DNA from: a virus
Taxonomy: Duplodnaviria; Heunggongvirae; Uroviricota; Caudoviricetes
DNA length: 50,003 bases
Reading direction: 5' to 3' (one strand)
IMG/VR virus record: IMGVR_UViG_2609459850_000002
Positions 27,001 through 33,000 of this stretch are shown piece after piece (positions within the stretch are counted from its first letter, which is position 1; each line of letters begins with the position of its first letter). Made by a program: the position numbers.

Positions 27001-30000
27001 ATTTCACCGTCAAAGCGTTTTTTGTCCCGTAACGCTAAAGTTACCGTAACTTTATTCTCAAAATTGCGGATCCCTTTCACAATCAGTTCATAGTTTTGAG
27101 TCATTGAATTACTCTCCCCGTGCAGCCTTACGACGGTCCTCTCTGATTTTGAAATACAGGTTAGTCAGATATGTCAGCAGCCCAAACAGCAGACTCCCCA
27201 GCACGCCTATTGCCGCCCACTGAGACGGGGAAACCCTGTCCAGCAACTGCAGGAACCAGTAGCCCGTTCCCACCGCTGACGTGGTGTATGACACACCTGT
27301 TGTGATTTTTTCCATCTGGTACATACCCCGTCTCCCGTTATCCGGAAGCTGACAACAATAAAAAAAGCCACCAGTTAAGTACTGATGGCTCTGATAACTC
27401 ATGCAGGCATCTCAGACGACCCACTGACACTACCGGTGAGTTTAACGATACCTTCCATTTGACTGGCTCACTTTTTATGATGATGCCGGTGCATTTATCT
27501 CCAGCACCAGACTTTCTATCTCAACGCCATACGCTGCATTTTTGGTAATATCCGTCAGCGTCAGCGCATTCAGCCCCAGTGTCAGACTGTCTTTTATGGC
27601 CTGGAATGCCGGGCCAGCCACTCCATTCAGTTTCGGAGTAACCGTGGCACTGCCGGCGGTGAACACCAGCTCCAGCGTCTGCCAGTCGTTACTGTAATTC
27701 CCGAACTCGCCCAACTTTGTGTTTCCGGCTTTCTTGTGATGCATCAGATTCAGTTTGCCGTCTGTGGTCTGGGTGAAGAACGACATCAGGAACGGGTTAC
27801 CAGTCCCGGTCATCGCCACGACGTCAGGTAACGCTACATCGGTATACAGATAAATTCCCAGACCGAACTGGTTGTTGGTCAGTGCGCCTGACAGTCGAAA
27901 CTTACAGCTCAGTCTGCCACCCCGTGTCAGCAGGGAGACTGCGTCATCCACCGGATGCATCAGGGACCAGGTTTTATTGCTCTGCTTGGTAACCTTAAAC
28001 ACACCATCTTCCAGCGCAACACTGCCGCCGGTGATGGTCCAGCCCTGCGCAGCAGCCTCTCCGGCTGTCGGCAGCAGGGAGACTGTACGAACGGATGTGT
28101 CACCATCAGACGGCCCCGATGGCGTGTCGCCGCCGGGCGAGGGTTTAATCTCCGGTGCGGTACCGCTGATGAAGGCGCTGGTTCGACCAACTGCGTTCAG
28201 AATAGCGGTTGCCAGGCGATCCGAAATAATGCCCCTGCGCGCCCATGAACTGAAATGTGTCGGACGATTTGACGATACCCAATTACCATTACTACGGGAT
28301 TGCGCGCCGTAATAACCTGCATCAGCAATATCCGGGTCTTCTGCCGGTAAGTTGGTGGGCGTGTTGTTGCCGTTACCGTCGGTCATGAACGGCACAAAGA
28401 AAACGTTGTCGCTCTCCCTGTTTTTGTACGCGCCGTAGACGGAGTCATACTGTGTGCCGTATGTGTTTTTCCAGTAATACGTCGTGTCGCCACAAATCCA
28501 CGGTATAACTGCAGCACTGCCGCCATGGCACTGCGCGTTAAATCCGGAAAGGTCAGTACGGAACTGCTTCAGCATGGCCGTGAACAGGTCCGGTTGCTGT
28601 GCGTAGGTGGCAGCGCTCATGTCAAATTCGCCCTGCATCCAGCACACCGCCAGCAACACATTTTTCGGGTTCTTCTGTAATGCCGCTTTGGTGCGTGCGA
28701 TCAGGTCCTGATATAACGGTTTACCCACACCCCAGCGTGCCGAATCCTGGCTGGCCCCCGTGTCCGCACTGAATGTCCCCTCCGCGCCCTGGGTGAATGC
28801 CGAACCACCACGACAGCATGGTACCAGCAGGATCCCCGCGTTATTCGGGATATACGGAAGCAGTTTTTTGGCAATATGTAAGCCCTGGCCGACACAGCCG
28901 TACTGCCCTTTGCTCAGGTCTGCCTTCGGATGATTCAGTGCGCTCATATCCTGAACATCATGCAGGCAGTGGTCTGCCGGAATGATGTCGTTAAATGCGC
29001 ATGCTTTACCACCGGGAGTCACTGTGTTGCGACGGGCCAGTTGCTTAATGCGTGGGTGGGGCGCATCGTAAGAATCCGGAAGCGGAAGCCCTTCACCGTA
29101 AGCCATGGCATTGGATTGCCCGGCCAGTACGATGACGTAGTACCACTCCGGCTCAGTTGCACCACTGACGACCACATCACCTTCTGCTGCAATCGCCTGC
29201 ATCAGGGTATAAGGGGTTATGGCCACCGGACTACCAAACGGCTGCCAGCCCTCTTTCAGTTTATGTGTCAGCTTTTCCGCAAGATCTGACGGCGACGCCG
29301 CCCTGACAACATCATAGTGTTTAAATGCCATGGTTCTTTCCACCATCTGAAAAATGATTCTTTAAAATACCTGACATGTAATACAGAAAAAACACAAAAC
29401 CATACCTTAAATAAAAACCTCATCATCAAGCAGATATGCATGGATAAACTACAAGACGAGATATAAACCACCCTGCATTTAAATAAACAATAAACAACAT
29501 CAGAAAAATAATTCTGCTCTATGGTTTACAATCAAAAATATCATTTATACTTTTCAGAACATCACCAGCAAGGCATAAACAAGGAAACTAAATGAAGTGG
29601 ATTGTGATTGATACAGTTATCCAGCCATCATGCGGAATATCTTTTTCAGTCATATGGAGTAAAATAAAATTAATAATCTGGTATCAATCGGATGCTTTCT
29701 TACCTCCTGAAAGTATATTTACACTGACTCACACAGGCATCATGCTCAATAACAAAGTGCTACCTGTAACCATTTACAACGTAGTACCATTCAATAAAAC
29801 ATTATGGAATTTAATCAAAAACAGCCAGGAATGCCCTACAAATACAGATAACGTATTGAATGAATGCTTTAATAACCGTTGCACTCTGCAAATATGTCCT
29901 TATGGGCTAAAACAACAAAGTCCATAAGCAGTTTACTCACATCTGACAAAATCAATATAAACAGCCCCTCCGGAGAGGGGCTGGAGAGTGGCGCTATGTG

Positions 30001-33000
30001 CCATTGCATGGTGCCGGGTGCCTCCCGGTGAATTCAGTACCAGCACCTGAATCCGCGATTATCCCATATACCTACTCGCTGATTACCCCTCCGCACAGGG
30101 GGATTCACCATGCGAAATTTTTTAACAAACTTCCCGCCGGCCAGACAATAATCGCCAGCCTGAATTATGAGCAACGTGGCATTTTACGGGAAAACTGTTT
30201 TCTGCAGTAAAAAGGCCCGCCGGAGCGAGCCTGGAAGGATAGCGGTCATGTGATGCCGGTTTCCCGGTAACTCAGCATCGGTATCTGAGTCAACGTTTTC
30301 TCTACTGGGTCATTTCCGATACGTTCCGCCTTCCGGCAGACTTTCATCACGTCAGAAAATATAGCACCCTGAGTAACAGGACAGTACTCAGAATTCAGGA
30401 AACTGTGACACATCCTGCACAGAAAAGCCCCTCCGGAGAGGGGCTGAAGTATAGCCTAATTTCTGTCTGTCGCATGGTGCCAGGGGCCTCCCGGTAAATT
30501 CAGCCTGTCTACTGAATTTGCATGTTCTCTGGATCATACACTTTGCCAGATGCCCCGCCGCTGAGGGGGATTCACCATGCGATGTAATTTTTAACAAATT
30601 CTCCGGCAGCCAGACAATCATCAAGCTGTGGAATTGTGAGGTATTTAAAAATTTCAACGGGTAACTGATACCCTGCTAATCGCCTGATGCTTTCTTTTTC
30701 AGCAACGGGAAAGCAACAACCACACACCCGCCACCAAAACACCATCAGACAGCACCGACATTATCCGGCTGCTGAAGTCCACCATCACCACCAGAAACAA
30801 CAGGAGTGCAACCACAGCTGCTTAGAAGGCAATTGCTCTGTCCGGCTGAGCTAACAACGCATGATGCAGATAATGGACCGCCATCGGGGACTTGAACCCC
30901 GCGCAGCCAGCTTCGAAGGCTGGCGCTCTATCCCGATGAGCTAATGGCGGTATGTGATGGTGGCCCTTGCTGGATTTGAACCAGCGACCTGGCGATTATG
31001 AGTCGCTCGCTCTCACCACTGAGCTAAAGGGCCGGAAGCAGAATAATAATGGTGCGTAATTAATTCTGCAATCTCATCCGTTTCAAACGATTAAATCCTG
31101 AACTTCCCTGACTGTCTGCTCAAAACGTCCGGTCTCCAGTTCAACGCCAATCGCACGACGCCCGAGCGCCAGTGCAGCTTTTACCGTTGAACCTGAGCCC
31201 ATAAAAAAATCTGCAACCAGGTCACCCGGACGACTGCTTGCGCTGATTATCTGCTGCAGCATTTCTGCCGGTTTTTCGCACGGATGTTTCCCGGGATAGA
31301 ACTGCACCGGTTTATGTGTCCACACATCCGTGTACGGCACCTGCGCCGTCACACCAAAATACCGCCGCAGATGCTTATATTCACTCTGCAGCTCCACATA
31401 CTGCCGGTTCAGTGACGTATACGTATCCACCAGCTGGTGGTGGGGCTTTTCCAGTTCACCGCGCTGATGTTTCTCTTCTGCCACCCGGGCAAACAGCGAC
31501 TGTAATTTCAGATAATCGCTTTCGTTCGGTAGCTGCCACTGACTGGCACTGAACCAGTGCGACACCATGTTTTTCTTTCCTGTGGCATCTGCAATCTGTT
31601 TTGCCGTTATCCCCAGGGCCGCGCGCGCATCACGAAAGTAAGAAATCAGCGGGGCCATCACATGCTGTTTCAGTGCACTGCCCTTCGCCGCATACCCGGC
31701 ATCTTTCGGACGATACGGCCCCTGATAATGTTCCGCGAACAGAATGCGCTCTGTGGCGGGGGAATACGCCCGCAGGCTTTCCTTGTTGCATCCGTTCCAG
31801 CGTCCGGACGGCTTCGCCCAGATAATATGGTTCAGCACACTGAAGCGTTCACGCATCATGATTTCGATATCAGATGCCAGGCAATGACCACAGAACAGGT
31901 AAAGACTTCCGACAGGTTTCAGCACCCGCCAGAACTGCGCCAGACACTGGTCCAGCCACTTCAGGTAATCATCGTCGCCCTTCCACTGGTTATCCCATCC
32001 CTCAGTCTTCACTTTAAAGTACGGCGGGTCCGTGACTATCAGGTCAACAGAATTTTCGGGTAACGACCGGATAAATTCCAGGCAGTCGGCGTTGATTAAC
32101 TCACAACTGGATATTTTTACAGTATTAAGCATGGATCATTAAGCCTGTCTCTGATAGGCTCATTCTGCTTTTGCGCAAAGCAGTGGGCCTGAGGTTTGCT
32201 TGTGAACCCAACGCATGAGCAGATGGCTGGTGGGTGCCCCTAACCCCCACCAGCCGCCCATTTACCACAAATAAAAAAGCCTTCACTGCGGAAGGCGTCT
32301 GTAACAACCGAACTGATAGTCTGCCAGACCCGCCATAACCAGCTGGGTCAGTATTAACTGGCAGCGTTCGCGTGAAAGGTAAGTATTCTGCGCTATCTCC
32401 CCGACTGTCGCCGGTTCGGTAACGCTTAATTCATTAAACACCACTCTGGCGGTTTCTGTCATATCCTGCTGTTTTAGCATGTCTTTTTCCCTTTTCCGGT
32501 TAACGTGACACACCAATAACTCTTGTCGAAAAAGCCAGCAAGCTGAAAGACAGGTATTCACCGCCACCAGCGCGTTTACTGTACTGACGCGATTTCAGTC
32601 ATAAAAAACCCGCCAGGCGGCGGGGTGTAAAAAATCTTCTAACGTCAGGCATAAAACGCCCATCGTTAGAGCAAATTTACCACAGATTCGGGAAAAATCA
32701 ACAACACTATCGCGTTACCCTCTTTAACTGCCGCTCCGCCCATGCCTCTTCAATGTCAAACCGAACCACCAACGTATCGTAAAAGCGTTTCACTGATTTT
32801 TTCCACGTATCAAGCGTGATAGCACTCGTCACTTTGCATATGGCATTAAATGCCTCCGTTGATGGCAGCCTTTCACAGCCACGACCACCACAACGCTGGC
32901 AATCTCTGATAACAGGCATACCACGTTTTACCGACTCTTCACGATGAATGGCGACACCACGCCCACGGCAATCCTTACAGGCGGTGGAAACCTCACCCTT

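Follow-up and report, generated by a model that had tools for sequence, protein, structure and literature searches.

Several kinds of small RNA (sRNA) have been described from the moron, or extra-gene insertion, site of lambdoid prophages. STnc100 (Rfam RF02076, 'Gammaproteobacterial sRNA STnc100') was first listed in Salmonella and occurs in multiple copies in prophages. Tree et al. (2014; PMC4104026) reported Hfq-bound sRNAs at the moron site, 3' of PR', in eight prophages of Escherichia coli Sakai, where they are usually paired convergently with a short anti-sRNA, for example AsxR or AgvB. EcOnc04, EcOnc05, EcOnc06 and EcOnc27 (the last also called sRNA103) are Hfq-bound RNAs from prophages of the O157:H7 strains Sakai and EDL933 (PMC4104026; review PMC7873438). 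In Shiga toxin 2 (Stx2) phages, one STnc100 copy lies 75 nt downstream of stx2B and overlaps the Hfq-bound EcOnc27. Here we describe a locus in a virus of the class Caudoviricetes (IMG/VR record IMGVR_UViG_2609459850_000002), whose whole stretch of 50,003 nucleotides is called the window. An earlier note, made from the sequence alone, had marked there two copies of a structured element between a tRNA cluster and a NanS-p-like gene. The locus is a tandem array of STnc100 / EcOnc04-05-06-27 (sRNA103) / PasD-type prophage sRNA genes, and the family is already known.

PasD1 and PasD2 of E2348/69, a strain of enteropathogenic E. coli (EPEC), were found by RIL-seq (Hfq-based RNA-RNA interaction sequencing) and verified by Northern blotting. 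Their stability depends on Hfq, and they are homologues of EcOnc13 (PMC8550237). PasD has many RIL-seq partners, reached through a UGUGAG seed, and the published 5' end of PasD2 is position 741157 of NC_011601. A common ancestry of PasD and STnc100 has been proposed in a preprint (Zhu, Shabalina and Storz 2026). In EDL933, all 11 STnc100 copies are transcribed without prophage induction, one of them verified by Northern blot, and in Salmonella LT2 the STnc100 copies are reported to show an RpoD signal in chromatin immunoprecipitation with exonuclease digestion (ChIP-exo). Hfq-CRAC (UV-crosslinking) peaks and Northern bands were obtained for EcOnc04, 05, 06, 13 and 27, and the 247-nt species of EcOnc27 is destabilised in a delta-hfq strain (PMC4104026).

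We consider it likely that the window carries three independently transcribed sRNA genes of the STnc100 family, each composed of a promoter, a scaffold, a linker and a terminator, and that their products are Hfq-associated base-pairing regulators. The weight of this as a discovery is small: Rfam already lists the family, its members have been detected by Hfq crosslinking, RIL-seq and Northern blotting in enterohaemorrhagic E. coli and EPEC, and its connection with the stx moron site has been published. Modestly new are a sub-threshold type of copy, the recurrence of the tandem array, the probable promoter content at the 5' end of the Rfam model, and a fourth scaffold that has no terminator.

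Family identity and anatomy of the three copies

When the whole window was scanned against Rfam, RF02076 matched twice on the minus strand over the complete model (positions 1-206): at 30417-30610 (copy A; 138 bits, E 2e-30) and at 29953-30141 (copy C; 132.5 bits, E 5e-29). The gathering score of the family is 47 bits, and matches of this quality lie far outside chance. A permissive scan revealed a third full-length match between these two, copy B, at 30206-30381 (-), which is below threshold (30 bits, E 3e-4). In a repeat search the terminal hairpin also turned up a third time, in weaker form, at 30210-30236. The standard and permissive matches together give three tandem copies, not two. The separation of about 460 bp that the earlier note had measured is real, since the direct-repeat blocks are 466-469 bp apart, but its count of two missed copy B at about 30350-30208. 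The Rfam scan that the note had proposed as a check also removes the novelty it implied.

Over the RNA body, global identity is 71% for A/C, 57% for A/B and 58% for B/C, and each of the three is approximately 55% identical to PasD1/PasD2. Our own covariance model, R1, scores A at 126.8 bits, C at 149.8 bits and B at 68.2 bits, the last being the score of a sequence that belonged to the R1 seed. Copy B is most aptly treated as a diverged relative or a subfamily. Copy C is the commonest E. coli variant of STnc100. The Northern probe for EcOnc05 is identical to copy C at 30050-30084, that for EcOnc06 matches with one mismatch, and the EcOnc27 probe matches the family member of phage 933W. These probe matches tie the window directly to the work of Tree et al. 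The primers for quantitative PCR of STnc_100 used in a study of outer-membrane vesicles (PMC12370729) also match copy C exactly.

Other identities were considered and set aside. The four-way junction suggested a tRNA-like element or a substrate of RNase P. ARAGORN, however, finds only two genuine tRNAs, no match from the Rfam tRNA clan falls on any of the three copies at E<=10, and promoter spacing accounts for the 5' end more simply. The copies are not PasD itself: even with up to 4 mismatches allowed, the PasD probe matches nowhere in the window, and UGUGAG is absent from all three linkers. Two matches to the 5' anchor, at approximately 21695 (-) of the window and upstream of the DUF3927 open reading frame (ORF) of E2348/69, are chance or coding sequence and not family members.

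The three genes have a common layout on the minus strand. Copy A begins with a promoter-like element (30581..30617) made of a -35 hexamer TTGTCT (30617-30612), an 18-nt spacer and TG-n-TAAAAA, in which the TG is at 30596-30595 and the -10 hexamer TAAAAA at 30593-30588, 7 nt from G30580. The sRNA gene itself is about 158-160 nt long (30421..30580), with the scaffold at 30580-30472. Its 8-bp helix P1 pairs GCAUGGUG (30580-30573) with CACCAUGC (30479-30472). The linker (30471-30446) leads into the terminator stem-loop (30445-30426), which is followed by UUUUCU.

Copy B has a promoter-like element at 30351..30366 with an extended -10, TGcTATATT (30366-30358), 7 nt from G30350; the motif CAGGGTGCTATATTTTC is kept in distinct B-type upstream sequences. 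The gene is about 142 nt long (30208..30350). P1 is reduced to 6 bp between GUGAUG (30350-30345) and CAUCAC (30255-30250), and it is followed by P2 (CUGCC/GGCGG), P3 (ACUCAG/CUGAGU), P4 (CCGG/CCGG), a linker (30249-30233) and a terminator (30232-30213) with UUUUU.

The promoter-like element of copy C (30114..30148) consists of TTGTCT at 30148-30143, an 18-nt spacer and TAAAAA at 30124-30119, the hexamer being 5 nt from G30113. The region upstream is homologous to the corresponding regions of the copies in Sakai Sp4 and 933W. Copy C is the equivalent of EcOnc05, with a gene of about 155 nt (29958..30113); its P1 joins 30113-30106 to 30013-30006, the linker is at 30005-29984, and the terminator (29983-29962) is followed by UUUAUAUU.

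The linkers, which are single-stranded and 17-26 nt long, differ from copy to copy (GACAGACAGAAAUUAGGCUAUACUUC in A, AUGACCGCUAUCCUUCC in B and AAUGGCACAUAGCGCCACUCUC in C). A, B and C each end in a Rho-independent terminator with a 3' U tail of at most 4-5 consecutive U. In A and C the terminator hairpin is formed by AGCCCCTC and GAGGGGCT, with 8 bp in A and 9 bp in C, and it has a T-rich tail on the minus strand. It is the perfect hairpin that the earlier note saw in both of its copies. A terminator scan found such hairpins with T tails at all three copy ends on the minus strand, as the note had said of its two; 1.6 are expected in shuffles of the whole region.

The ends of the RNAs were set by the rule '5' anchor to first intrinsic terminator', the anchor being the published start of PasD2. 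This mapped 5' end is the G of GCAUGGUG, at the start of a 5' module, GCAUGGUGAAUCC. Under this rule A comes to 158 nt, B to 142 nt and C to 155 nt, and the lengths it yields for PasD2 (172 nt) and PasD1 (173 nt) are exactly the published ones. By the same mapped end, positions 1-29 of the RF02076 model are probably promoter and not RNA.

Fold and covariation

When folded independently by minimum free energy, A, B and C adopt the same architecture, with z-scores of -2.53, -2.65 and -3.08, respectively. It comprises a closing helix P1, a hairpin P2, a variable insert, P3, P4, a single-stranded linker and the terminator. We call the four-helix 5' part closed by GCAUGGUG/CACCAUGC the scaffold. 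This closing pair is the long-range pairing of the earlier note, and it appears in the separate folds of A and C, as does the hairpin AUUCAG...CUGAAU that the note described as having a conserved stem and a variable loop. The minimum-free-energy fold of B retains P1, P2, P4 and the terminator, with the P3 region paired otherwise; the P3 pairing ACUCAG/CUGAGU is apparent from the sequence and from the model alignment. Copy B appears to retain every helix through compensatory changes.

Homologues were collected from IMG/VR contigs and a few enterobacterial genomes, giving 81 distinct full-length members that fall into 28 clusters at 88% identity. The alignment of 28 contains A, B and C of the window and 25 other representatives, with locus L017 left out. 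A degenerate pattern scan of genome contigs yielded nearly all chance matches and six enterobacterial loci (L017, L051, L070, L093, L098 and L114). On a structure-blind MAFFT alignment of the 28, RNAalifold recovered P1-P4 and the terminator, with compensatory changes in 13 of 30 pairs. In this alignment 95.7% of cells pair, compared with 42-49% after the 3' partner has been displaced by 1-3 columns. Shuffled alignments give 4.9 +/- 1.5 double-changed pairs, and none of 500 shuffles reaches 13; the double-change cells number 43 against 10 in shuffles. MAFFT shifts P1 of copy B by one column, so the support is a little stronger than these figures say.

The same alignment was used to build a covariance model, which found 70 matches in 40 sources; 55 of these are distinct. 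When the 55 are aligned to the model, pairing is kept in 97.1% of cells and double changes occur at 22 of the 30 pairs, with displaced controls at 42-51%. Because it is fitted to the model, this second alignment leans towards the structure, which the MAFFT alignment does not. The changes are readily seen in single helices. P1 varies from GCAUGGUG/CACCAUGC to GCGUGGUG/CACCACGC, to GCAUGAUG/CAUCAUGC or, in copy B, to GUGAUG/CAUCAC. Another helix varies from GGAUUCAG/CUGAAUUC to GGGUUCAG/CUGAACUC, GGGCUCAG/CUGAGCUC or GGAUUCUG/CAGAAUUC. In both alignments the consensus fold is upheld by compensatory change across STnc100 members. The earlier note had inferred selection on structure and had asked for covariation among homologues; the covariation found here bears this out at the level of RNA.

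The 5' scaffold and the segment CACCGGGAGGCACCCGGCACCAUGC are near-invariant among members, and the linker and terminator come in several unrelated types. Such mosaic 3' types on a near-invariant scaffold point to recombination inside these genes. The note had offered recombination repeats as an alternative to sRNAs. Repeats acting purely at the level of DNA are not needed to explain the locus, but the mosaic 3' ends show that recombination does shuffle these genes.

Promoters, transcripts and alternative explanations

The motif TTGnCT-N17/18-(TG)TTAAAA is kept in 46 distinct upstream sequences of the family. Across them the TTGnCT and TTTGTTAAAA blocks are constant, and the spacer is free to vary. 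The motif aligns with the promoter region of PasD2 and is at the right distance from its mapped 5' end. Each copy looks like a self-contained gene with its own conserved sigma-70-type promoter. The sRNA reading of the earlier note agrees with the Hfq crosslinking and Northern verification of homologues. Its suggestion that the sRNAs are released from the late transcript is not supported: each copy has its own promoter-like element, homologues are expressed in uninduced lysogens, and an RpoD ChIP-exo signal is reported at the copies in Salmonella.

The mechanism that we propose has the following parts. Transcripts of about 142-160 nt would start at or near the G of GCAUGGUG and would be made in the lysogen. 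The RNAs of A, B and C would bind Hfq through the terminator and U tail; for EcOnc27, the Hfq peak abuts that of AsxR and so covers the 3' linker and terminator. The conserved scaffold would, we infer, stabilise the RNA. Each linker may act as a seed that pairs with different host or prophage mRNAs, an assignment drawn from PasD, in which the UGUGAG seed is located in the linker just 5' of the terminator. Since each copy has a linker of its own, the array would provide three regulators acting on different sets of targets. If the linkers do act as seeds, one prophage would deliver all three at once, which bears on host rewiring in pathogenic E. coli. A CU-rich anti-Shine-Dalgarno motif shared by the linkers (CUUC in A, CUUCC in B and CUCUCC in C) was considered and rejected, as it is not general across the 28 representatives. 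Finally, the three terminators would stop unmodified RNA polymerase, and only polymerase modified by the antiterminator Q would read through them in lytic growth. Read-through by Q-modified polymerase is the established lambda-type model of Q antitermination.

Several observations weigh against three independently transcribed, Hfq-associated regulators. A generic promoter scan misses the promoter-like sites, since the -10 hexamer TAAAAA has an A at position 6 in place of the usual final T. For a strong Hfq 3' module, the U tails of A (UUUU) and C (UUUAUAUU) are on the short side. The evidence for expression, Hfq binding and targets comes from homologues and not from the exact sequences of A and B. 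Reports on targets and phenotypes of STnc100-type RNAs comprise effects of sRNA103 overexpression on fimZ and espA and an in-silico match to stxB. Elsewhere in the window, A, B and C find complementary stretches of at most 11 nt, which is the level of chance, and no cis target is proposed. Ribosome coverage is above 1 at four STnc100 copies of EDL933. Northern blots gave about 222 nt for EcOnc05 and about 235/247 nt for EcOnc27 (PMC4104026). These sizes exceed the 153 nt and 171 nt that are predicted from GCAUGG to the terminator for the EcOnc05 copy in Sakai Sp4 (L245 2775-2930) and the EcOnc27 copy in 933W (L244 3059-3229), respectively. Species extended at the 5' or 3' end must therefore exist, and for EcOnc05 and EcOnc27 the 5' end is provisional. 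The extra length could be a 5' extension, from processing of an upstream transcript, or read-through into the convergent anti-sRNA.

This last point leads to the strongest of the alternatives, which we nevertheless hold to be unlikely: that the sRNAs are not primary transcripts but are cut from longer read-through transcripts, either the Q-antiterminated late transcript or an mRNA of the tRNA/DUF3927/moron region. The position of the copies is compatible with it, as all three are on the late-transcript strand downstream of PR' and copy A comes directly after the DUF3927 ORF. The long bands of EcOnc05 and EcOnc27 would fit 5' extensions to the preceding terminator or to the end of stx2B. However, the sequences needed for an extension of 65-75 nt are unrelated between Sp4 and Sp5, and 3' read-through into the convergent anti-sRNA would give the extra length equally well. 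Also speaking against processing are a promoter motif that stays at a constant distance from the 5' end mapped for PasD2 in 46 distinct upstream sequences with differing spacers, the expression of homologues in uninduced cultures, and the reported RpoD binding at the Salmonella copies.

A role in cis is less probable still. The locus would then be a three-terminator insulator stack that silences the esterase and lysis genes in the lysogen until polymerase modified by Q passes through, or a set of DNA modules for recombination of morons such as stx and iraM, with the RNAs as by-products. The late strand has more terminator-like hairpins with T tails (three) than the shuffles predict, the family is always found at the moron insertion site, and the 3' linker/terminator modules are mosaic, including a member (L153) that combines an STnc100 body with a PasD-like terminator. 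Termination, however, needs the terminal hairpin only, which leaves covarying helices P1-P4 about 100 nt upstream unexplained, together with the conserved promoter before each copy and the abundant Hfq-bound RNAs of the homologues. DNA recombination sites would conserve sequence and not pairing through compensatory changes.

We dismiss the idea that the copies encode, or are remnants of, a small protein. In its favour are an incomplete 'hypothetical protein' pseudo-CDS (coding sequence) of the PGAP annotation at 29998-30123 (+), antisense to copy C, similar antisense ORFs over PasD1 and PasD2 (L002 3198-3439 (-) and L003 2801-3199 (-)), and the ribosomal coverage at the EDL933 copies. No ORF is common to A, B and C in any frame on either strand, as the earlier note had said, and indels make their ORFs differ in frame and extent. 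The only minus-strand ORF of copy C that follows a Shine-Dalgarno-like site crosses the terminator, with no stop inside the RNA, and the substitutions among homologues are compensatory in helices and not codon-patterned. The note had named identification as fragments of a coding gene as one way to refute it; on these grounds the protein-coding interpretation is rejected. The antisense CDS and pseudo-CDS annotated by PGAP over sRNA genes are probably annotation artefacts.

Arrays, neighbouring genes and comparison with known systems

Annotation of ORFs and tRNAs shows that the window contains a lambdoid prophage region with its late genes on the minus strand. The Q-like antiterminator gene (32707-33528, minus) is followed by a DNA methyltransferase gene (31083-32132), which separates it from tRNA-Ile(CAT) and tRNA-Arg(TCG) (31033-30874, minus; ARAGORN). 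A small DUF3927 ORF (30699-30815) lies between the tRNA cluster and copy A, which is directly 3' of it. Beyond copy C there is an iraM-like ORF of 111 codons (29592-29927, plus), and then an esterase gene of SASA/NanS-p type (27475-29346, minus). The name, anti-adapter protein IraM, is that of PGAP, in a record identical across the compared 801-bp stretch; the same record has holin and lysozyme genes 3' of the esterase gene. The location given in the earlier note, between the tRNAs and the esterase gene, is therefore correct. The array is at a moron site, with the Q/PR' late control region and tRNAs on one side and the esterase-lysis genes on the other. It shares with STnc100 and the EcOnc RNAs a place on the late strand of a lambdoid prophage, after Q/PR' and before the genes for esterase and lysis. 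The note had called this the slot where Stx phages carry stx. The moron site is indeed the same, but the element accompanies stx and does not replace it, since in Stx2 phages it is found immediately downstream of stx2B. The order in 933W is Q, PR', ileZ-argN-argO, stx2AB, family member, esterase gene, and in Sakai Sp4 the family member comes directly after three tRNAs; the layout is common to 933W, Sakai Sp4 and E2348/69.

The array is widespread. Of 5426 complete E. coli genomes, 655 contain the 801-bp stretch 29900-30700 at 80% coverage or more, often with 100% identity, and 2862 have parts of it. Strains NCTC86, PCN033 and NCCP15648 are among those with 100% identity. The B-type copy is found in 673 of the 5426 as two variants, with no annotation beneath it. 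About 12% of complete E. coli genomes have an array in which it is flanked on either side by a standard STnc100-type copy such as A or C, and among the loci fetched there are 16 such arrays, one of them in E. albertii. In a phage collection, 354 records match the family, mostly Stx-converting phages. The B-type copy is in only five phage records, and no Stx phage is among them. Tandem arrays are thus recurrent, and their members differ mainly in the presumed seed. Annotation by family undercounts them: copy B escapes because it is below threshold, and PGAP leaves A, B and C all unannotated. Two further IMG/VR contigs carry arrays, with four tandem members (L127 2271-3350 (-)) and two (L182 1392-1837 (+)).

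The chimera in L153 (11151-11345 (+)) combines a standard STnc100 scaffold with a long U-rich linker and the PasD-like terminator GGCTGCGCATGGCGTGGCC, and speaks for an exchange of 3' modules. This is the type that the EcOnc04 Northern probe matches. It may be that the family as a whole is a modular system, in which a near-invariant four-way-junction scaffold is joined to exchangeable 3' linker/terminator cassettes and prophages assemble the products into conserved multi-gene arrays; we put this forward tentatively, as a possibility with the odds against it.

A fourth family-like element is located at 46971-47137 (+). R1 scores it at 36.2 bits (E 8e-7 over the window), and Rfam STnc100 at a sub-threshold 36.6 bits over model positions 22-154 only. 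Its scaffold has P1 AUGCGGUG/CACCGCAU, P3 and P4 (CCUGG-AGGCA-CCAGG), and the family terminator is absent. It is placed between DicF (46899-46950) and isrK / c4-a1b1 / C4 (47184-47372). DicF and the terminator-less scaffold occur together in a few phages, with a weaker match in phage P7. If the family is modular, this copy would suggest that the scaffold has a role of its own apart from base pairing, for example as a protein platform or as a signal for processing or stability.

Three other features of the window were noted. The iraM-like ORF is convergent with copy C and, with its flanks (29347-29957), forms an AT-rich island with a GC content of 0.32-0.35 compared with 0.525 for the window. 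It fills the place that the convergent anti-sRNA has in the Sakai prophages, and one Stx2a phage record has an iraM annotation at the equivalent site. A truncated argO-type tRNA-Arg(UCU) lies at 30819-30860 (-); its first 42 nt are those of Sakai argO1 up to the anticodon loop, after which the DUF3927 ORF begins. It has the appearance of a scar left by recombination at the ileZ-argN-argO cluster's third tRNA. A full-length match to the sok antitoxin RNA (Rfam, 117 bits; 37673-37848, minus) implies a hok/sok-type toxin-antitoxin locus in the prophage.

The array can now be set against the systems with which we began. AsxR and AgvB (RF02703 and RF02702) and StxS share with it the lambdoid moron region and Hfq binding, but they are unrelated in sequence and size: AsxR and AgvB are 51-60 nt long and on the opposite strand, and StxS derives from the PR' leader. 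A partner of the AsxR/AgvB type was not found, with no RF02703 or RF02702 match at the gathering score in the window or at E<=10 in 29300-31100, and the core of the anti-sRNA probe, GCATGAGATACT, is absent from the window. The PasD RNAs share with A, B and C the 5' module GCAUGGUGAAUCC, helices P1-P3, the promoter layout, a DUF3927 ORF before and a SASA esterase gene after. They differ in having no full P4 hairpin and in their seed UGUGAG and GGCUGCGC terminator, both of which are absent from the three copies; against Rfam STnc100 they score below threshold, at 41 and 38 bits. The EcOnc members occupy the same position as the array of the window: they lie 3' of PR', with the moron on one side and the esterase gene on the other. 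In Sakai, however, they form convergent dyads with AsxR, AgvB or EcOnc08, whereas here three copies follow one another on the same strand and are then met by the convergent iraM-like gene. With STnc100 itself, copies A and C share the whole 206-position model, the strand logic, the helices, the terminator and the prophage context.

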